A stretch of 64,000 nt of DNA. Source: a bacterium. GTDB lineage: Bacteria; Patescibacteriota; Patescibacteriia; JACQRZ01. The position numbers and the translations under genes are program-made. Every line of letters starts with the position of its first letter. The stretch's first letter is position 1. Positions 8,963-63,651 of the stretch are shown piece after piece. The notes below the pieces were generated by a model. That model saw only the letters and a program-made list of their open reading frames with translations. It made no database searches and was not told the DNA's origin. The stretch lies in NCBI GenBank assembly GCA_030688365.1, contig JAUYIE010000005.1, positions 5,764 through 69,763 of the forward strand, read 5' to 3'.

Positions 8963-9997
8963 TTATGGGGCGATGGATGGCAAATACTTCCTCTTATTTG
9001 CCAAGTGTTCTTCGTATGTTTTGCTATAAATTGCGTTTCCTTGTCTATCAGTCAAAAAATAAAGATACGGTGTTTTTGTATAGTAAATAACCGACTTGAT
9101 GGATGCAAGACCGGGATTATCAATAGGACCTGGTGGTAAACCTGTATGTTTGTAGGTGTTATATGGTGAATCTGATGCAACATCATCAAATGTTGGTTGT
9201 GCCATACTTTTTCCCGTTACGTAATTCACCGTTGCATCGGAGCCCAAAGTCATACCCAGCGCCATGCGTTTATAAAAAATACCCGCTACAATAGCACGAT
9301 CTTCATCTGTAGCTACTTCTTTCTCCACAATCGATGCCAAAGTAATTACATCAAAAATTGTCCGTTTTTGTGCGACAATATCATCACGCATCTGCTGAGT
9401 AAACTTGATATCAAAATTTTCGAGCATGGCGTTTATAATATCATCAGCAGTGGCATCTGGATAAACCCGATACGTATCGGGAAAAAGATATCCCTCCAAC
9501 GTGGCGGTCCTTGGTAGATCAACAAGAAATGGATATTCGTCTTTGGGTACTTGCTGTGTAGCTTGTAAAAAGGTTGCCCCAGCCGGATGCCCTTGTTCTT
9601 TTAAATACTCACCAAACCCTGCACCGGTAAGCCCTTCACGAAATGTCAATGTCACTTCCGGTACGTATTGTGGTTTTGTCATAGTATGTACCACCGATGA
9701 AAGTGTAACCTTACCTGCGAACGAATATGTGCCTGCCTGCAAATGTCCATCGTTACCGGTAATAAAAAGATAAACACCAGCTAAAAACGGATTACTGATG
9801 ATATGATTATCATGAAGAAAAGCCAAGGTTTCAGAACCACGCTGCCCTGGGGGTACGACAACTTCTACTTCATGTTGGATGGAATGTGGTATAAACCAAA
9901 CATACAGCGCATAAACCCCATACAATACTATGATCAAACTTCCGATAGTTAAAAATCGTCTTGCAAAAAAACGAAAAATGGTCATGAAAACAGTCAC
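8963..9997 (-). CDS. mltG: Endolytic murein transglycosylase MltG (YceG family)
   Basis: N-terminal TM; YceG motifs SPYNTYKHTGLPPGPIDNPG and EKEVATDEDRAIVAGIFYKRMALGMTLGSDATV. Confidence 0.85.
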   Translation of the reverse strand: MTVFMTIFRFFARRFLTIGSLIIVLYGVYALYVWFIPHSIQHEVEVVVPPGQRGSETLAFLHDNHIISNPFLAGVYLFITGNDGHLQAGTYSFAGKVTLSSVVHTMTKPQYVPEVTLTFREGLTGAGFGEYLKEQGHPAGATFLQATQQVPKDEYPFLVDLPRTATLEGYLFPDTYRVYPDATADDIINAMLENFDIKFTQQMRDDIVAQKRTIFDVITLASIVEKEVATDEDRAIVAGIFYKRMALGMTLGSDATVNYVTGKSMAQPTFDDVASDSPYNTYKHTGLPPGPIDNPGLASIKSVIYYTKTPYLYFLTDRQGNAIYSKTYEEHLANKRKYLPSIAP

Positions 9998-29977: not shown

Positions 29978-30196
29978 ATCAACCTCCTTTTTATTCCCCA
30001 TTGAATAAAATGAACAATATCGACAACCCGAATATAGCACAATAGGTTATTTTTGCAAGCTAGGACGGTAGTGGACTTAAATTTTTGGCACCAAGTCACA
30101 AAACCAAAATCCCTTTGTAACAACGTTTAGAGGTAGTCTGCAATCACTGCCTGATTTTACCTCAAGTGGTTTATATACATGTTCACCAACTAAAAA

Positions 30197-30411
30197 ATGG
30201 ATTTTGTTTTTGAATTCAGGGAAAAAATGGGGTTGGGTTCAGGCGGGCTCCAAAACCCTCAAGCCCCCAAAGGGGGCGAAAGAGGAGACATATACACAAA
30301 CCTGTCTCTCCTGAACGAAATCCGAACTTTTTTTCAAAAAAATCCAGACGCGGAATTTTAAACTGGTGACATGGCGGAATTCCCCCCACACCCCCCTTCC
30401 GCCATGTTTTT
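30197..30411 (+). repeat. Structured ~215 bp repeat, copy A (direct); ends in terminator-like hairpin plus T5
   Basis: Near-identical to reverse complement of 32466..32680 and to 34161..34264; hairpins GCCCCC-AAA-GGGGGC, GGAGACA..TGTCTCC, CATGGCGGAA..TTCCGCCATG+TTTTT. Confidence 0.8.
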
Positions 30412-30451: not shown

Positions 30452-31282
30452 CTATCTCTCTAATTTTTTATTATTCTCTTTCTCAAGTTTTTTCTTTTCT
30501 TTTTTCAATTCTTTGATATGCCGTTCGGGAGGTAAATTTTCAGGTAAAATGCCACCAATATCCTTGATCGTCTGTCGTACTTTTCCGCCAACCATATTGT
30601 GAGTATTGATGGCATCCCTCTCCGAATCAACCTCATCTTTTTTAAGCTTTGAATCGGTTTGGGTAATACGAAAAAGATTTGCCGCCAATTCGGTCGAACC
30701 CGATCTGTCTAGTAGTTCTCCCTTCTTAATCCCCTTTCTTATTTCAACATCACCAAGAGGCATACCATACAGACCACTATACCCTGCATCATTGAATACC
30801 CCAAAGTGGGTCACGCCTGCCTGTCGAGCTGTTTTTGCCAGCTTTTTGTTCTGATTACTGACCTCGTCACGAATAAATAATCGTTTTTCGTTTAGACTCA
30901 TCTCCTCAAATAATTCTTGCTTTCTTGTCTGTAGAGCAAAGTATGTCTGCGCAAGTGCAATTTCCGTTTTTGACGGATCGCCATTTTGAGCTATCAAATA
31001 ACACGCATAGCGATCAAGCTTGTAATCATCCACTTTTCTCATGGTATTTGAACCGATCGAGACCATTTTGCTGATATCAGCAAAATGGTTATCCACAGCC
31101 TGTCCGCTCTGAATACAAGCCCGTGCCGCTTTTGCGATAACTTCTGCAAAATTTCTCCATTGAGCATAATCAAGCAAGCTCATCAATTCGCGAGCTGTCC
31201 AATACTCAATCCCATTCTCGTCAATTTTTTTAATGCTCTCAAAATCCTTGTGTGGACTTGAGGGCAGTAGCTCATGTGGCAT
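30452..31282 (-). CDS. dinD: DNA damage-inducible protein D (DinD)-like protein
   Basis: WTARELMSLLDYAQWRNF, RYACYLIAQNGDPSKTEIALAQTYFALQTRKQEL, GSTELAANLFRITQT closely parallel E. coli DinD (recalled from memory); start at ATG 31282 or upstream 31369. Confidence 0.65.
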   Translation of the reverse strand: MPHELLPSSPHKDFESIKKIDENGIEYWTARELMSLLDYAQWRNFAEVIAKAARACIQSGQAVDNHFADISKMVSIGSNTMRKVDDYKLDRYACYLIAQNGDPSKTEIALAQTYFALQTRKQELFEEMSLNEKRLFIRDEVSNQNKKLAKTARQAGVTHFGVFNDAGYSGLYGMPLGDVEIRKGIKKGELLDRSGSTELAANLFRITQTDSKLKKDEVDSERDAINTHNMVGGKVRQTIKDIGGILPENLPPERHIKELKKEKKKLEKENNKKLER

Positions 31283-31392
31283 ATTTAGTATTTGACTATG
31301 AACTATTATTACATCCGATGGTACCATGTTTAGATAACAAAGGATGTTCCCGTACTGGCAAACAATCAATATTGCGTTCCCATTTGAGTAAT

Positions 31393-32280
31393 CTACTTTT
31401 CAACACTACCGAGTCTATATCCTATTGTTCGTCCCTTCTTACCTTCAGAAAAAAGTACTGTGGGGCCTCCAGCAAAGAACTCAAGTGGCGCAAGTTTTGA
31501 AATCGCTTTGAACAAATCTAAGCTAGTGGAATAAACCAATTTCTCAATTTCAGGATTATACCCATCATAATATACTGCCACCTTTTTGGGACCTTCCAGA
31601 TTTTCACTATCAGGATATTCTTCATTAACTTTATATTTCTCATACCTATCATCCAGTTTTTTAAATACCATACTACGCCTAGCGTAAGAAAAGGAAATTA
31701 TATTCTTTTCTTTATGTAAAGCAATATAGATAGGCAAAAGCATTTGATCATTCTCAATTATCAATGTTGTCTGTCTATCCCCATCACACATCTCCTTAAT
31801 AATGTCATCAGAATTAATGAGATTGTCATTGGGAATTAATTTCAATTTTTCGATTGAGGGTATTTCTATATCTCCTAATTTCTGGTTTATATCCCGCATG
31901 GCTATTCTAATATCTTTATAGGCAACGAGACCAGTTTTTTCTCCACAGTGTTCTTTGAAAACCTCAATTATTTTAGAAGCTTCTATGTCTTTCACGTTTA
32001 TTGCGACATCGAAATTACTAAATGATAGAAACTTCTCCAATTGACTTTCGTGAGACTCATTCTCACGACCCCATAATGTAGCATAAATTTCTGCCATTTT
32101 ATCGGTATCCAAGTCGTCACCATTTAAATATAAATATCTTCCATTGTCTTCAATCACATAATCTCTAACCTTTTCAAGTCTATCTACATACTCCTGCGAA
32201 ACCTCGCCTTCAATTTTCAAACCGTGCTTGTCTGTATCTAATGCATTTACATTATTAGGTTGTTCAAATTTTGGATCCAT
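31393..32280 (-). CDS. Hypothetical protein co-transcribed with dinD-like gene
   Basis: 295 aa ORF, 24 nt upstream of dinD-like; no recognisable motif. Confidence 0.4.
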   Translation of the reverse strand: MDPKFEQPNNVNALDTDKHGLKIEGEVSQEYVDRLEKVRDYVIEDNGRYLYLNGDDLDTDKMAEIYATLWGRENESHESQLEKFLSFSNFDVAINVKDIEASKIIEVFKEHCGEKTGLVAYKDIRIAMRDINQKLGDIEIPSIEKLKLIPNDNLINSDDIIKEMCDGDRQTTLIIENDQMLLPIYIALHKEKNIISFSYARRSMVFKKLDDRYEKYKVNEEYPDSENLEGPKKVAVYYDGYNPEIEKLVYSTSLDLFKAISKLAPLEFFAGGPTVLFSEGKKGRTIGYRLGSVEK

Positions 32281-32465
32281 AAAATTTAATATTAATAATG
32301 TTCAGATATTACTATAAAACCTAAACGACTCATGGCCATCATAAAATAATCTTTACTCACACTATGACATAAACTTGTGTTTAATACAACAGTCCTAATT
32401 TGGATTAGCGCAGTCATTTCTTTCTTGCAAACTCTCCTTAAAAAGCATATCGTTAGTAATATAAA

Positions 32466-32700
32466 ACCATGGCGGAAGGGGGGCGTGGGGGGAATTCCGC
32501 CATGTCACCCATTTTAGAATTCCGCGTCTGGATTTTCTTGAAAAAAAGTTCGGATTTCGTTCAGGAGAGACAGGTGTGTGTATATGTCTCCTCTTTCGCC
32601 CCCTTTGGGGGCTTGAGGGTTTTGGAGCCCGCCTGAACCCAACCCCATTTTTTCCCTGAATTCAAAAACAAAATCCCATGGTTTGTTGAAATCCACTTTC
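32466..32700 (-). repeat. Structured repeat, copy B (inverted relative to A)
   Basis: Reverse complement ~97% identical to copy A over ~215 bp including the terminal hairpin; lies ~190 nt upstream (same orientation) of 31393..32280. Confidence 0.8.
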
Positions 32701-32758
32701 CACCTATGGCGGAAACATCCAAAGCGACATACAACATAATTCATAGCCTCCAAGCGAT

Positions 32759-34324
32759 ATGAATACGTTCTTTCTCTACGCTCGCAAGTCAACAGATGAG
32801 CCAGATCGTCAGATATTGAGTATTGAAGCCCAGATCACCGAGCTTCGCGAATTTGCCCAACGAGAACATCTTGATATTGTGGATACATTTATCGAATCCC
32901 AAACAGCAAAAGAACCGGGGCGTCCCATATTCAACAAAATGCTTGATCTCGTAGAGAAAGGTGGTGCAAATGGAATTTTGGCGTGGCATCCCGATAGACT
33001 CGCTCGCAACAGCGTTGATGGGGGGCGCGTAATTTATCTCACCGACACGAGAAATCTCACTGACCTCAAATTCCCTACCTTTTGATTTGATGCCACGCCA
33101 CAGGGCAAATTCATGCTCAATATCGCTTTTGGACAGAGTAAGTACTATGTGGATAATCTCTCGGAGAATGTGAAACGAGGATTACGGCAAAAAGTACGGC
33201 GTGGTGAACAAGTTGGGCGAGCACCGATGGGATATCTCAATGATCTTGTCGCCAAGAAAATGATACCCGACCCCCTACGCTTTCACCTTATTCACAAAAT
33301 GTTTGAACTGTATGTGACTGGTAATTATTCTTTGAAATCCCTCCGAGAGATTATCTTTGAGAAAGGACTGATGAGTGGAACAGACAAAAAGCTCTCTATT
33401 TCGATGATACAAAAAATACTCACCAATCCGATGTATTATGGTGCCTTTCTTTTTAACGGAGAGCTTTTTGCTGGCACTCATGAGCCATGCGTGTCAAAAA
33501 AACTGTTTGATGGAGTGCAAAGTATTCTGACAAGCAAAACAAACCCCAAGAAGCGAGGCGAGAAGCAGTATCCCCTACGAGGATTGTTTGTATGCGGTGA
33601 ATGTGGGTGCAGTATCACGTCAGAAACGCATAAAGGACATGACTACTATCGATGCACCAAGAAAAGGGATGCAAAATGCTCACAGAAATATATTCGAGAA
33701 GAGCTTCTCGCCCAGCAACTATCAACAATAATTCAAAACGTTTCTTTGCCAAAAGATTGGACGGACAATATACTTGAGCAACTACAAACGGAGAAATCGG
33801 ATACCGCCCAATCTGATGCCCTATTCGCTCAAACAATTAAGGATGAGGTAAAAGTATATGAAAACAAGCTTGATACCTTGCTGGACGCACACCTTGAGCA
33901 ACTCATCACGAGAGAAGAATATACCACCAAGAAAAACAAAGTATTGTCTCAAAAGATGGACTTAGAGCAAAAACTAAAGGATTTTGAGCGAAAGGGCAAC
34001 GCATGGCTCGAACGTACTCGTGCGTTCATAAATGCTTGTATCCAAGCGGAAAATGTCGCTTTGGATGAAAATATTTTTGCAAAAAAAGATTTTCTGAAAA
34101 AACACGGCTCGAACCACCTCCTCACTGACAAAACGGCTTGGGTGGATTTTCTCGCACCATGGGATTTTGTTTTTGAATTCAGGGAAAAAATGGGGTTGGG
34201 TTCAGTTGGGATTCAAAACCTTCACGCCCCCAAAGGGGGCGAAAGAGGGGGCATATACACACACCTGCGGGACATGGACTCGAACCATGATACCATCCTC
34301 CAGAGGGATGTGTCCTACCATTAG
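32759..34324 (+). pseudogene. Large serine recombinase interrupted by an in-frame TGA at 33083-33085; C-terminal ~60 codons run through repeat C and tRNA-Gln antisense and are probably not native
   Basis: Resolvase catalytic domain YARKSTDE...SIEAQ...ESQTAKEPGRP; same frame continues after TGA: FDATPQGKFMLNIAFGQSKYYVDNLSENVKRGLRQK, recombinase domain, Cys zinc ribbon CGECGC...YYRC, coiled coil; functional part ends near 34140. Confidence 0.75.
34141..34264 (+). repeat. Structured repeat, copy C (partial, direct), abutting the 3' end of tRNA-Gln
   Basis: Shares ~110 bp core with copies A and B but lacks the terminal hairpin; fused directly to tRNA-Gln. Confidence 0.75.
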
Positions 34325-34335
34325 ACGATCCCGCA
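34265..34335 (-). tRNA. tRNA-Gln (anticodon CTG), U1-A72
   Basis: Minus strand TGCGGGA-TC-GTCT-AATGGTA-GGAC-A-CATCC-CTCTGGA-GGATG-GTAT-CATGG-TTCGAGT-CCATG-TCCCGCA-G. Confidence 0.85.
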
Positions 34336-34358
34336 GGTCTATGTACATGTTATGACTT

Positions 34359-57870: not shown

Positions 57871-58298
57871 ACTCCCAGCTGTCCCAACTGTTCAGCAATC
57901 TCCCCGCTCTGCTTTTCCGTCTTGGACTTATATGTTTGCCACACTTCCTCAGACCATACTTCGATGCGGTTATAGAGTCCCGCAACGACGACTTTCTTCC
58001 CGAGATGTGCGTATGCTCGGAGATAGTCTGGCAAAATAATTCGACCTTGTTTATCCAACGACACATCCATCGCACCCGCAAGCATGAGCCGGGCAAATGC
58101 ACGTGTATTGGCTTGAGTGATAGAAAGATTGGACAGCTTCTCTGCCAACTTTTCCCATTCTTTCACGGTATACAGAACAAGACAGTCATCCAAACCCTTG
58201 GTAACCACCGCACCTTTGGTAAGTTCCTTACGGTACTTGACTGGTACGGCCATCCGCCCCTTTTCATCCACCGAGTGGTTGTATTGCCCTATAAACAT
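57867..58298 (-). CDS. mraZ: Transcriptional regulator MraZ
   Basis: MFIGQYNHSVDEKGRMAVP and second DxxGR repeat (LDKQGRIILP). Confidence 0.9.
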   Translation of the reverse strand: MFIGQYNHSVDEKGRMAVPVKYRKELTKGAVVTKGLDDCLVLYTVKEWEKLAEKLSNLSITQANTRAFARLMLAGAMDVSLDKQGRIILPDYLRAYAHLGKKVVVAGLYNRIEVWSEEVWQTYKSKTEKQSGEIAEQLGQLGV

Positions 58299-59183: not shown

Positions 59184-59660
59184 TCAGTAATTCATATTTG
59201 ATAAATCTTCAAGCGCTTTGAGTGCATAAAATTGCACCTTATCAGTTATACCATCCCTATTGCTCTCCAATTCTTCTTTTGTAAACCATCGGCATTCTTC
59301 AGTAATCTCTTCAGCCGACAACTGTAATACATTAGTTTGTGTAGTAGCAAAATATATAAATGCAATATGTTCATGTATGTCATTGATATGATGTCTTTCT
59401 AAATATTGTGGTGGAATGAGCGATTGATCATAATCACCAAAGGCGGGTTGCCTTCCTTCCTCTGTGTGTAGTATCACATCTAACCCAACCTCTTCCTTGA
59501 CTTCTCGCACTGCTGCTTCATTGGGGTCTTCGTGTAATTCAATGTGCCCGCCAACGCTGAGCCACATCTTATATTTGTCATGTTTTCTCAAAAGTACGGT
59601 ATTTTTATACACAATGTATGTCTCAACAACAAAATCTATTTTATCATGGATATGAGGCAT
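59184..59660 (-). CDS. NUDIX hydrolase
   Basis: Nudix box GGHIELHEDPNEAAVREVKEEVGL. Confidence 0.8.
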   Translation of the reverse strand: MPHIHDKIDFVVETYIVYKNTVLLRKHDKYKMWLSVGGHIELHEDPNEAAVREVKEEVGLDVILHTEEGRQPAFGDYDQSLIPPQYLERHHINDIHEHIAFIYFATTQTNVLQLSAEEITEECRWFTKEELESNRDGITDKVQFYALKALEDLSNMNY

Positions 59661-59666
59661 ATATCT

Positions 59667-59897
59667 TCAAATTCCTATATATCGAAATCGTGGCACGTCT
59701 TGTCCATCAATCACAACATTTTCCAAAAACATCGCTTTTGGGCGCACCCAAAGAGTATTTGCCTCCATACCTTTCACAGGATCGGGGTGATTATAGACAA
59801 CCATTTCTTCAAGTGTCTCACTGTGCAACGCGAGGCCAGTTACCTCAACAATAGTTCCTTTATAGTGCTGGTACTTTCCGAGTTTTATATCTTGCAT
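59667..59897 (-). CDS. DUF1653-family small protein
   Basis: GKYQHYKG...EEMVVY...WVRP pattern; assignment from memory. Confidence 0.45.
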   Translation of the reverse strand: MQDIKLGKYQHYKGTIVEVTGLALHSETLEEMVVYNHPDPVKGMEANTLWVRPKAMFLENVVIDGQDVPRFRYIGI

Positions 59898-59910: not shown

Positions 59911-60357
59911 CTAGGAATTCATACTATCTTTTGATATCTCCTTCAATACCCATTGTTTCACATTTTGAGCAGCTTTATAGGCGTCCTTTGCATCGCCCCA
60001 ATGAAATTCTGGAAAATCGCCGGGATAACGAGTTTGGACATAGTACCCGTTTAAAAAAGTAAGATCTTCTTTGACCTCCTTCATAGAAGGTAAAAATACC
60101 TCTATTGTGGTAGCAATAGCAACAAGATCATGAATTTTTGGAAAAGATCGATCAGCAAAGACGAGTAATCCCTTTAAATACTTTTCTGCGATCTGTTGAG
60201 ATAAAAAACACACCGTGCTTGGCGACCCATGCTGTTCTTTGAGAATAAAACTGGCAGAAAGGTCATCCTCGTCAGCCTTTGCAAACCACTTTTGATAGAG
60301 ATTATTTTGCTTTTTTGGCATAGAGTATTTTGCCTTTTTTAAGGATATCACCAACAA
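59911..60357 (-). CDS. HEPN-domain protein (HepT-like toxin)
   Basis: R-x4-6-H motif in TRYPGDFPEFH, helical; overlaps the MNT gene; start possibly at 60321. Confidence 0.65.
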   Translation of the reverse strand: MLVISLKKAKYSMPKKQNNLYQKWFAKADEDDLSASFILKEQHGSPSTVCFLSQQIAEKYLKGLLVFADRSFPKIHDLVAIATTIEVFLPSMKEVKEDLTFLNGYYVQTRYPGDFPEFHWGDAKDAYKAAQNVKQWVLKEISKDSMNS

Positions 60358-60634
60358 AAAAATCGCCCATATCCATACGTTTTTTTACCTGGACAGGAGT
60401 CATGACAATAATATCAAGGGCTACTTTCCGTCCCCACAAAGCCCCGTCAATCTCTCGCGCAACCTCACGTGTCGATCTCGTTGTTTTTTTGATAACTACG
60501 AGATCAATATCACTGTCTTTATGTGGTTTCCCCCACGCGTGGGAGCCAAAAAGTATTATTTTTTCAGGGTTAAACTCACGAGAGATAATCGCTGTAAATT
60601 CCTCAATTGCTTTTTTGGGAGACGTTGAATACAT
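60302..60634 (-). CDS. Minimal nucleotidyltransferase (MntA-like antitoxin)
   Basis: GS-x9-13-DxD motif LFGSHAWGKPHKDSDIDLVV. Confidence 0.7.
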   Translation of the reverse strand: MYSTSPKKAIEEFTAIISREFNPEKIILFGSHAWGKPHKDSDIDLVVIKKTTRSTREVAREIDGALWGRKVALDIIVMTPVQVKKRMDMGDFFVGDILKKGKILYAKKAK

Positions 60635-60688: not shown

Positions 60689-61741
60689 TTACATCGTCAT
60701 CTTTTTTATAACCTCTTCCAACCTGCGCGCATTGCAATGTCCCAACATCCCTAAATATGACTGCCTTGTACTCTCTAATCTTTCTTTGGTGATACGTCCA
60801 AGCTGAAATTCATGGATTCTTTCAATAAGCTTGTTCATCATACGCTTGCGGGTAAGTGGCCGTACGATGGTATGATCAGGAAGTGATATATATCCTAAGA
60901 AATCAATTCCTTGCGACCATTTCCGGATGCTGACTTTTTTAGGATGTAGTTCGAGACACAATCGTTGTGATAAAAATTCCTGCAACCTCATAATCAACTC
61001 CCCAAGCCACACTTTATCGTGACTGATTATCACAAAATCATCGCAATATCTGATATAATAGGTTGCCTTTAATACATGCTTCACAAACTGATCCAACTCA
61101 TTGAGATATATATTCGCAAATAGCTGACTCGTTACATTTCCGAGAGGAATCCCTTTCCCTTTTGACACTTCAAAGCCGACAATAATTTGCTCCAATAGCT
61201 TCATCACCCGATCAGTACCCAACCTATCCCATAATAACTCCAACAGCACATTATGATCGACTGAATCAAAAAATCTCCGCACATCGCATTTGAGCACATA
61301 CACCGGCCGTGTTATATTGTTACTTTCCTTCCTCAGGAAAACACGTAATCTCTCTATTGCGCGATGCGTCCCCTTTCCTAGACGGCATGAATAGGAATCG
61401 AAAATAAACGAGCGATCAAATAGTTGGTATAATATTCGGAAGATAGCATGATGAACTAATCGATCTCTCACCTGCGCTTTGTGGATATGTCGTATTTTTG
61501 GGTCAGTGATGTAAAATGGGGTATAGGCTCCATGGCGATATCGCCCAATGAGGAGTTCTCTATGTAGTGGAAATAGATGATCCTCAAGATGCAACGCAAA
61601 TTCATGAATATCTCCCTTACCCCATTTGCCACGCGAAAATTCTTGCCACGAAATCACGAGATTTTCAAGACTAATTATTACATCAAAAAAACTTGTATGG
61701 TAACCCCCCCCCACGACTTCGGATCGGTTCCTGTTGTCCAT
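60689..61741 (-). CDS. Reverse transcriptase, diversity-generating retroelement type
   Basis: RT motifs DSYSCRLGKGTH, LKCDVRRFFDSVDH, GIPLGNVTSQLFANIYLNELD ([I/L]GxxxSQ, DGR hallmark), YIRYCDDFVII; 350 aa, no maturase or zinc finger. Confidence 0.75.
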   Translation of the reverse strand: MDNRNRSEVVGGGYHTSFFDVIISLENLVISWQEFSRGKWGKGDIHEFALHLEDHLFPLHRELLIGRYRHGAYTPFYITDPKIRHIHKAQVRDRLVHHAIFRILYQLFDRSFIFDSYSCRLGKGTHRAIERLRVFLRKESNNITRPVYVLKCDVRRFFDSVDHNVLLELLWDRLGTDRVMKLLEQIIVGFEVSKGKGIPLGNVTSQLFANIYLNELDQFVKHVLKATYYIRYCDDFVIISHDKVWLGELIMRLQEFLSQRLCLELHPKKVSIRKWSQGIDFLGYISLPDHTIVRPLTRKRMMNKLIERIHEFQLGRITKERLESTRQSYLGMLGHCNARRLEEVIKKMTM

Positions 61742-62056
61742 AAAGCATCAGAGTGGTACAAGACCATTTATAAATTCTCCGCAAAAATCTCCAAGAAAAA
61801 TCGCTTTGGTATCTACTTGCGAATAGAACAGCACTCGCTCGAGCTCATTGACCTGCTTCTTGTCGCTACTCTTGAAAGTAAGGAAAGTAAATCTCTCCCT
61901 CTTCGTCGCGCCCGTCTCAAGATAGAATCCCTCAAACACCTCTTGCGGATATGTTATGAGCTGGGGATCATCGACATCAAATACTATATAAATTTTGAAT
62001 ATCGTCTCCAGGAAATCTCAAAAATGACCAATCGTTGGCTACAGTCTTTGAAATAG
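61697..62056 (+). CDS. Avd-like four-helix-bundle protein (23S rRNA IVS protein family), candidate DGR accessory variability determinant
   Basis: ...VHKASEWYKTIYKFSAKISKKNRFGIYLRIEQHSLELIDLLLVATLES...LKHLLRICYELGIIDIKYY; only in-frame ATG (61697) overlaps the RT start by 45 nt on the opposite strand. Confidence 0.5.
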   Translation: MVTPPHDFGSVPVVHKASEWYKTIYKFSAKISKKNRFGIYLRIEQHSLELIDLLLVATLESKESKSLPLRRARLKIESLKHLLRICYELGIIDIKYYINFEYRLQEISKMTNRWLQSLK

Positions 62057-62060
62057 CACA

Positions 62061-62084
62061 CAGAGCCCGCTTGCGCGGACTCTG
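62061..62084 (-). other. GC-rich hairpin with GNRA-type loop immediately 3' of the VR
   Basis: Minus strand CAGAGTCCGC-GCAA-GCGGGCTCTG (9 bp plus one mismatch). Confidence 0.45.
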
Positions 62085-62095
62085 TATTGGGCATT

Positions 62096-62824
62096 TTAGG
62101 AGACTACCTCACGGAGGCGCAAATTGTCATTGTAGTTGTCAGTGTTGTACCAGTTCACCTTGACCTTACCATCGTTGAAGTTGACGTTGGGAACGTTACC
62201 GTCCACATTGCGAGAACCCGCACAAAGTGTGTAATTTTTTACATCGAGATGTCTTTTTTTCTCCCAATATTTCAAAAGCCCAAGTAAAAGACGTTCCCTC
62301 ACCGTTACACCCTTAATGCTCTTTTCCTTAGCCTTATCTGCCGAAATGTTGGCATATTTTCTGTTAGGCTCAATTGAGCCTTCTACCCAGACAATCTGCA
62401 TACCTTTAGCAGGATCACGCTCAAGATCCGTCACAACTTCATCTAAAGAACGTCCTCCGTATCCGTAAATGGTAATTTCGATCTTTAATTTGGCATATCC
62501 ATCCAATATTTCCTTGTGGGTCACACCCTCAGGGATTATTACCAACTGCCATCCTTTTCCCCGAGGACATTCAGGGATCATATTTTCATCAATGTCGATG
62601 TCCCTATTAAAAACATCTTTAAAAAACTTTTTTTGTTGAGTGATAACATCAAAAATATTTTCTGGATTCTCTGCTGCTTTTTTTTGAGATTCCTGATTCG
62701 AGGCAATAATTTTTTTGACCTTTTCAAGTTTATCTTGAGGAAGTGTCAAAATGTCACTATAATCAATTCCTATCTGCTCTAATGCAAGAGCAACAGAATC
62801 GGCAACGGCGATGATTTTATTCAT
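62096..62824 (-). CDS. Candidate DGR target protein with C-terminal variable region
   Basis: C-terminus TLCAGSRNVDGNVPNVNFNDGKVKVNWYNTDNYNDNLRLREVVS, Asn/Asp/Tyr-rich as in C-type-lectin/FGE-like DGR variable domains. Confidence 0.6.
   Translation of the reverse strand: MNKIIAVADSVALALEQIGIDYSDILTLPQDKLEKVKKIIASNQESQKKAAENPENIFDVITQQKKFFKDVFNRDIDIDENMIPECPRGKGWQLVIIPEGVTHKEILDGYAKLKIEITIYGYGGRSLDEVVTDLERDPAKGMQIVWVEGSIEPNRKYANISADKAKEKSIKGVTVRERLLLGLLKYWEKKRHLDVKNYTLCAGSRNVDGNVPNVNFNDGKVKVNWYNTDNYNDNLRLREVVS
62099..62230 (-). repeat. Putative DGR variable repeat (VR) at the 3' end of 62096..62824
   Basis: Coding strand AAT GTG GAC GGT AAC GTT CCC AAC GTC AAC TTC AAC GAT GGT AAG GTC AAG GTG AAC TGG TAC AAC ACT GAC AAC TAC AAT GAC AAT then GC-rich TTGCGCCTCCGTGAGG; AAC and single-A variants dominate. 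Confidence 0.5.
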
Positions 62825-62985: not shown

Positions 62986-63309
62986 CTACTGACCATTAGG
63001 TGTAATCATTTTCTTTGACAAACTTATATTCGGCTCTCTCCCATACTCCGGCGTGACCACATTGCCGACGGGAACTTTCTTGACCTCAATTATACCAAGC
63101 GCGACGGTCTGCGCAACAGGTCGATCTTCAATCATAGGAATACCAACCACAGGGATCCCTAGTCCAAACGACAATGTATTTCCAACAACAATCCCACTCC
63201 GCAGTGCAGAAAACGCCCCAGGGCCACTGTTTACCACAATACCCTTAAGCGATTCCAATGTCACCCCATTTTCTTTCAAACCTTGCTGAATGCCTTTGAG
63301 TGGATCCAT
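62986..63309 (-). pseudogene. tsaB: N-terminally truncated TsaB/YeaZ homologue
   Basis: LKGIVVNSGPGAFSALRSGIVVGNTLSFGLGIPVVGI matches the TsaB core; upstream frame closed by stops, missing the ~30-40 N-terminal residues; short at ~107 aa. Confidence 0.45.
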
Positions 63310-63651
63310 ATGACCGTTGCCTCGTATATTTATCAATATATGATACTGGCACTTCTATATGTTGGTATGCTTCTGAACCAGGTGCAATTATGCGACATTT
63401 TGGGATCTTTATATCCTTTGACAAGGAAACTCTGTCGGCTTTATAGGTAAATAGAGACCTTTCTGCCTTAAAGAACGACACCGATCTAACCAGCTATGAC
63501 CCGGTTTTATATCAATCTTGTATCGTTTTTTACCCAGCGAGAGTGTGGGAGAGACTCGAATTAGTGTATTACTTTTCATTATTTCATCCCCTATTTTCAA
63601 AATGAACTAGATATCTAGATAGTAAGGTTTTACGTCAATGTAGTCAAACCC

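Follow-up and report, generated by a model that had tools for sequence, protein, structure and literature searches.

Diversity-generating retroelements (DGRs) are protein-diversifying retroelements that are common in the tiny bacteria of the Candidate Phyla Radiation (CPR). The DNA analysed here is a window of 64,000 nt from the 112,884-nt contig JAUYIE010000005.1 of a metagenome-assembled genome (MAG), the contig that encodes the proteins MDP2656198–MDP2656200, and it carries, close to its right-hand end, a DGR cassette. A Logan contig (L001), identical to the window from position 57927 on, runs 5.7 kb past the window end and extends the analysed DNA to about 69.7 kb. The cassette comprises a gene for a reverse transcriptase (RT), an avd gene on the opposite strand, and an open reading frame (ORF) of the kind that DGRs diversify, the target gene, which ends in a single repeat followed by a GC-rich hairpin (Table 1). 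An earlier note on this DNA, made without database searches, had recognised a DGR here and had taken the repeat, with its hairpin, as a variable repeat (VR) of established architecture whose template repeat (TR) could not be found. The comparison with related loci described below leads to another reading of the repeat: this is probably a CPR DGR of the architecture known as B3, in which VR and TR have collapsed into one hybrid repeat.

Table 1. Features of the DGR cassette, with positions counted from the first nucleotide of the window (HMM, hidden Markov model).
Feature	Positions	Strand	Basis or character
DGR-type reverse transcriptase, 350 aa	60689-61741	-	ORF, Pfam RVT_1, PDB match, relatives
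avd (accessory variability determinant), 119 aa	61697-62056	+	HMM matches below cut-off and synteny
GC-rich hairpin, 11 bp with GCAA loop	62060-62085	-	10 nt past the stop of the target ORF, 3 nt from the avd stop
Target-family gene, 242 aa, MDP2656200.1	62096-62824	-	N-terminal helices, then C-terminal CLec/FGE-like domain
Single TR-like repeat, codons C201-S242, in frame with the target	62099-62224	-	5' flank of VR type; body and 3' flank of TR type

The RT matches Pfam RVT_1 (E 4.6e-21) and contains the motif LGNVTSQ at aa 200-206 (61124-61144), on which its first recognition as a DGR-type enzyme had been based, together with the catalytic YCDD at aa 232-235 (61037-61048). By these [I/L/V]GxxxSQ and YxDD motifs the predicted enzyme is assigned to the DGR clade, and A-biased TR/VR pairs flank its homologues. 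Among solved structures its best match is bRT, the DGR RT of a Bordetella phage (8ub7; E 2.2e-44, 155 bits), in comparison with 85 bits for the group II RT GsI-IIC and 64 bits for retron-type RTs. Grouping with group II or retron RTs was the outcome that the earlier note had named as fatal to its proposal, and the RT lies far below the NCBIfam cut-offs of these families. Identity with a group II intron RT/maturase was rejected with 135.7 bits for TIGR04416 against a cut-off of 300, and identity with a retron or defence RT with 52 bits for retron St85 (cut-off 235), 82 for Drt3a (cut-off 200) and 67 for Drt2 (cut-off 390). No group II intron RNA family reached its gathering score anywhere in the window. 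The NCBI gene call for the RT has 322 aa; the longer start, giving 350 aa, is preferred because the extra 27 aa upstream are conserved in the two closest relatives, L002 and L003, the closest of all being L002 with 78% identity.

The product of avd matches Pfam bAvd (E 5.6e-8) and NCBIfam DivGenRetAVD (E 3.7e-12), both under the curated cut-offs, and gave no match to solved structures at E values up to 1. By using tblastn, an antisense avd directly upstream of the RT was found in about 60 related loci, and L002 likewise has an antisense avd, with 90% identity to the Avd of the window. Because this synteny is conserved, including in L002, the plus-strand ORF is taken as a real avd and the element as a member of the CPR DGR clade; the Avd-family gene of the earlier note is thereby upheld, with the correction that it lies on the opposite, plus strand. 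The avd and RT genes are divergent, and their head-to-head starts overlap by 45 nt (61697-61741). The closest relatives conserve the N-terminus of either protein, and in many relatives, too, the match to avd starts only beyond the start of the RT; the overlap, seen in L002, L003 and most related loci as well, therefore seems to be a conserved trait of this DGR clade. A 63-aa ORF antisense to avd (61748-61939, minus strand), present in one public gene call, was rejected as a gene and is most likely spurious, as it has no family match whereas avd has both HMM matches and synteny. Between RT and target, the NCBI record lists a single protein accession, which is taken to be avd.

The 242-aa target protein has no match in Pfam or NCBIfam. 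It aligns over 180-236 residues, with 30-38% identity, with the VR-bearing targets of most of about 17 DGR loci, and a profile search of 5.8 billion proteins yielded 114 proteins of this target family, in none of which a Pfam domain was found. The residues H192, L193, D194, T199, C201, G203, S204 and R205, just 5' of the repeat, are invariant or nearly so across the family and are all present here; because all of them are kept, the 5' flank of the repeat is regarded as true target coding sequence. The N-terminal part of the protein is a helical region without match. Among the fold matches listed for the target were the C-terminal domain of Bd2740 (8.2), SUMF2 (8.0), the DGR variable protein TvpA (7.7), the C-terminal domain of Lcl (6.6), Mtd (6.3) and TaqVP (5.5), as well as many animal C-type lectin domains; a comparison of the target with the PDB by Foldseek gave nothing significant. 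In sequence, the target has no detectable similarity to TvpA of Treponema denticola, TaqVP of Thermus aquaticus or the Lcl/DUF1566-type domain. The C-terminal domain has a CLec/FGE-like fold, as is expected of a DGR target, so that both the target family and the fold check proposed for its C-terminus bear out the earlier note. The Asn-rich C-terminus that had drawn attention to the gene is likewise present, with Asn (AAC/AAT) at 10 of the last 39 codons of the ORF. This richness is itself exceptional in the family: counted after the C-x-G-S-R motif, the 114 proteins have a median of 1 Asn, and the window protein, with 10, is the sole outlier, the other 113 having 0-5. The VRs that relatives carry in this target family thus have 0-5 Asn in comparison with 10 here, which argues against calling the tract a VR.

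Architecture B3, with the order TR-(avd)-RT, is reported for 90% of CPR DGRs (Wu et al., 2018; PMC5758913), and the CPR DGRs form a clade of their own, DGR clade 2 (Roux et al., 2021; PMC8144416). The window cassette was compared with 80 genome loci whose RTs are 46-56% identical to its own, most of them labelled CPR/Patescibacteria. Read on the RT strand, the layout of these relatives is target with VR, spacer, TR of about 120 nt, short gap with hairpin, antisense avd and RT, the avd start meeting or overlapping the RT start. In 63 relatives the TR always lies between VR and avd, and the repeat period from VR to TR has a median of 448 nt. In P0007 (65% identity), the nearest relative for which context is available, a 239-aa gene and the RT are 786 nt apart, which is the canonical spacing. 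The contigs of L002 and L003 end inside avd (position 1), beside the expected TR site, and do not show the state of their repeats. Besides the RT identity, the window cassette shares with CPR B3 DGRs the antisense avd upstream of the RT, an AAC-rich repeat and hairpin by the 3' end of avd, and a target on the RT strand, upstream, of the same protein family as in about 17 of the 80 loci. It differs from them in having one repeat: the separate VR and the spacer of about 320 nt are absent, the target ORF runs into TR-type sequence, and there is no separate target gene with a VR one period upstream of the TR.

In position, composition, sequence and hairpin, the body and 3' flank of this single repeat resemble the TRs of the relatives and not their VRs. 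As in B3, where the TR abuts the 3' end of the reverse-strand avd, the tract lies 42 nt from the avd stop (TR median 23 nt, mostly 1-57; VR median 471 nt, minimum 376; n = 49), and its distance to the RT start is 357 nt (TR median 362 nt; VR median 804 nt, minimum 511; n = 63). Its A fraction is 26.6%, in comparison with a median of 26.7% for the TRs and of 13.0% (range 3.9-19.0%) for the VRs, and its 10 AAY triplets equal the TR median of 10 (range 6-15), against a VR median of 1 (range 0-4). By nucleotide identity, all 16 relatives with the same target family have a TR that resembles the tract more than their VR does (medians 0.71 and 0.60, respectively), and the translated last 40 residues are 59-78% identical to the translated TRs of the relatives in most loci.

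The hairpin follows the same pattern. On the minus strand it reads ACAGAGUCCGC-GCAA-GCGGGCUCUGU, with 11 pairs, one of them G-U, and its 71-nt context has a minimum free energy of -29.8 kcal/mol (z = -5.9 in comparison with shuffles); the GC hairpin with GCAA loop of the earlier note is thus present, with a stem longer than the 9 bp given there. It starts 13 nt after the last codon. In 65 relatives, a stem of at least 7 bp starting about 11 nt past the TR was found in 52, and past the VR in 19, at a distance of about 25-35 nt. CTTGT repeats, common after the VRs of relatives, are absent 3' of the window tract; this is weaker evidence, since at least one CTTGT follows the VR in 20 of the 65 loci and the TR in 6. 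Position, composition, sequence affinity and hairpin are therefore all of TR type in comparison with 49-65 relatives, and the description of tract and hairpin as established VR architecture has to be given up.

Two observations on the repeat flanks of the relatives may be added. Pyrimidine-rich direct repeats resembling CTTGT(A/T)CC lie 40-70 nt past VRs (for example L021, 9247-9300; L010, 1082-1140; L034, 7564-7620) and occur on the VR side in many relatives with this target family, the hairpin then lying about 35-40 nt downstream; they could serve in recognition of the recipient side or as the promoter of the TR transcript. The hairpin between TR and avd stop lies 5-45 nt past the TRs (for example L022, 9650-9685; L023, 9632-9665) and is conserved in structure and not in sequence. 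It often stands between an A-run and a T-run, like a bidirectional terminator, and may be either a transcription terminator or a part of the DGR RNA.

The DGR of Bordetella phage BPP-1 (mtd-VR, avd, TR, brt) offers a more distant comparison. Its RT has the same IG/LGxxxSQ and YxDD motifs, and an Avd family protein is present in both systems. In the window, unlike in BPP-1, avd runs opposite to the RT and overlaps its start, the repeat that precedes the hairpin is of TR type and not a VR, no TR/VR pair is present, and the target is a small 242-aa protein and not a phage tail fibre.

The absence of a second repeat, already noted for a part of the window, extends to both strands of the whole window and of the 5.7 kb beyond it. 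Gapless scans tolerant of changes at A, made with the whole tract and with its halves, found no partner on either strand of the window or of L001, nor was a partner repeat found when any 60-mer of 56-64 kb was taken as template and compared with the whole window. A gapped blastn self-comparison, filtered for A-biased mismatches, gave no TR/VR pair in the window. As a positive control, this screen recovered TR/VR pairs in 67 of the 80 related loci, its misses being mostly loci with the RT at a contig edge. One of the misses, L017, was considered as a second case without VR and rejected, as a run of N replaces its VR in the record (about 9045-9190). Near the locus, generic searches for repeats, run on 56-64 kb and on the whole window, gave chance matches only. 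At the protein level, a six-frame HMM search with the family profile found no second target-family gene in the 69.7 kb, no other member attributable to the MAG of the window is among the 114 family proteins, and a protein collection that includes Logan gene calls holds no alternative version of the target from this organism. The tract written as a pattern with A degenerate to N was absent both from JGI metagenome contigs and from viral contigs (0 matches each). The locus thus has no pair of repeats that differ at the adenines of a TR, and no diversified VR with a 3' end of recipient type, the A content, AAY count, 3' flank and hairpin of the only repeat being TR-like.

Because the cassette lacks the TR/VR pair that defines a working DGR, it is described here, as assembled, as a collapsed derivative, and it is probably dead. 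From its anatomy we infer a deletion of about 440 nt, or one repeat period, which would have removed the body of the diversified VR and the spacer between VR and TR; the length by which the spacing of the tract from the RT falls short of a canonical VR-to-RT spacing equals one period (median 448 nt in the relatives). The likely cause would be slippage during replication, or recombination, in the short stretch that the repeats share at their 5' edge (CAGSR codons; 13-20 nt in relatives). The target ORF now continues straight into TR sequence, its end preceding the TR-side hairpin by 10 nt and the avd stop by 42 nt, and the lectin-like binding face of the protein would be fixed in an Asn-rich, template-encoded state. 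RT and Avd are intact and the tract remains transcribable. Without an invariant donor apart from the target, and without a recipient whose 3' end is of VR type, mutagenic retrohoming should stop, because in the Bordetella system the 3' end of the repeat decides which copy receives the cDNA (summarised in PMC5758913) and the 3' flank of the window repeat is of TR type. In a relative-rate test with L002 as sister and L003 as outgroup, the window and L002 had 17 and 14 unique changes in the RT, respectively, and 1 each in Avd. Given that neither protein is accelerated, the event would be recent, or the genes would still be selected for some unseen reason. Among the options that the earlier note had left for the missing repeat, namely a TR beyond the window, a lost one in a decaying DGR or a non-canonical one, the decaying DGR comes closest, with the difference that the missing part would be a separate VR and the VR-TR spacer, and not the TR.

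The proposed structure rests on assembled sequence. When the target, the RT and the nucleotidyltransferase beside them were looked up by exact sequence, only one Logan contig matched, and the locus is known from apparently a single sample, which weighs against the proposed collapse. So does the extent of the search: it covered about 69.7 kb, and a remote VR could lie in the further 43 kb or so of the contig or elsewhere in the MAG. A crossover would moreover be expected in the longer 3' identity sooner than in the short 5' one, and an intact RT and avd could mean that the system is still in use. The stop directly after ...VVS, as in the VRs of relatives and unlike most TRs, is neutral to mildly awkward. 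In one rival account, that of an assembly artefact, the genome would have the canonical layout; k-mers in common would have led the assembler to attach the 5' flank of the target to the TR and to leave out the VR body and the spacer. TR/VR repeats do disturb assembly, as related public assemblies break or carry runs of N at the VR or the adjacent avd region (Ns at the VR of L017; contigs of L002 and L003 that end inside the avd region), and an intact RT and Avd without rate acceleration fit a functional element; the locus is, besides, seen in only one sample. Such a mis-join would, however, have to occur at the 5' edge, where relatives share about 13-20 nt before the first variable A, presumably less than the usual k-mers, and a mis-join in the longer 3' identity would have given a VR-type, Asn-poor body. 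The junction is moreover identical base for base in two different assemblies, the NCBI MAG contig and Logan SRR13727534, and the protein collection holds no other version of the target from the organism. An artefact is on these grounds unlikely, at a probability too large to be neglected; because such repeats disturb assembly in relatives, the collapsed structure needs confirmation at the level of reads.

Two other accounts were considered. The tract could be the genuine VR of a normal DGR whose TR is beyond the window or lost, as the earlier note had it; it forms the in-frame 3' end of a target-family gene, its stop directly after ...VVS is that of VR copies, and no TR was found nearby. This account is highly improbable, as the tract's adjacency to avd, spacing from the RT, A content, AAY count, hairpin and sequence affinity are TR-like and outside the ranges of the relatives' VRs, none of the 113 other family proteins has an Asn-rich VR, and the space between VR and avd, which always holds the TR in 63 relatives, does not exist here. 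Conversely, the tract could be a working TR inside the target-family gene that serves one or more remote VRs or, as a variant, a single copy that is donor and recipient in a self-templating DGR. RT and avd are intact, the TR-side hairpin is preserved, and remote targets do occur among the relatives, where L045, L047, L049, L059 and L075 each have an additional VR, a second or third one, at a distance from the TR of up to about 4 kb. We consider this very unlikely, given that the 69.7 kb hold neither a second family gene nor an A-variant copy, that no other family member among the 114 proteins is attributable to the MAG, and that the A-to-N pattern has no match in JGI metagenome or viral contigs. 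Self-templating would in addition erode the adenines, yet the A content of the tract is fully TR-like, and the 3' flank, which sets the recipient in the Bordetella system (PMC5758913), is of TR type and not of VR type. A single repeat as a working arrangement, in which a TR in the 3' end of an expressed target is co-transcribed with it and feeds remote VRs or acts as donor and recipient at once, is little to be expected; if the repeat were donor and recipient at once, a single copy of it would suffice for this DGR. The collapse of VR and TR into one repeat therefore remains the preferred explanation.

Elsewhere in the window, repeats with 90-95% identity at 30.2-34.3 kb were considered as a remote TR/VR pair and rejected, as they flank an interrupted serine recombinase by a tRNA-Gln and raised no A-bias flag. 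The copies have 125-225 nt and a G/C-rich palindrome, and lie at 30187-30411, 32463-32696 and 34142-34267. Together they bracket two ORFs and the interrupted large serine recombinase (32759-33085 and 33113-34324), the genes spanning 30452-34324, and the third copy abuts a tRNA-Gln(ctg) at 34264-34336. The region looks like an integrated mobile element with att-like repeats, unrelated to the DGR.

Immediately downstream of the RT, at 59911-60634 on the minus strand, lies a pair of genes for a HEPN protein (148 aa) and a nucleotidyltransferase (MNT, 110 aa), a combination typical of toxin-antitoxin modules. Past this pair follow DUF1653 (59667-59897) and NUDIX (59184-59660) genes. On the other side of the cassette, two short ORFs of the TsaD/TsaB family (107-137 aa) flank a gene for a Na+/Ca2+ exchanger (window 62986-63336, minus strand; L001 4583-4996 and 5106-6062); the ORFs matching TsaD/TsaB may derive from a tsaB-like gene that was split or duplicated.

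Surveys of DGRs routinely leave aside RT genes for which no repeats can be detected. A limited literature search found no account of a DGR in which the target gene terminates in the TR of the same element, and surveys of such orphan RTs, which lack TR/VR pairs, could check the ends of target genes for TR-like sequence. The comparison made here is also of use against mis-annotation, as an AAC-rich tract with a nearby hairpin by avd marks the TR, and not the VR, in CPR B3 DGRs. In addition, the locus would give an expressed, TR-encoded variant of a CLec-fold protein that can be compared with its diversified relatives. It belongs to an ordinary family found in an unusual state and reveals no new mechanism. 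If the collapse is real, it would be a natural case in which a DGR inactivated itself in a single step, with its own repeats as the substrates of the deletion, and in which the target was locked in the unmutated, "germline" sequence of its template while RT and Avd stayed intact.

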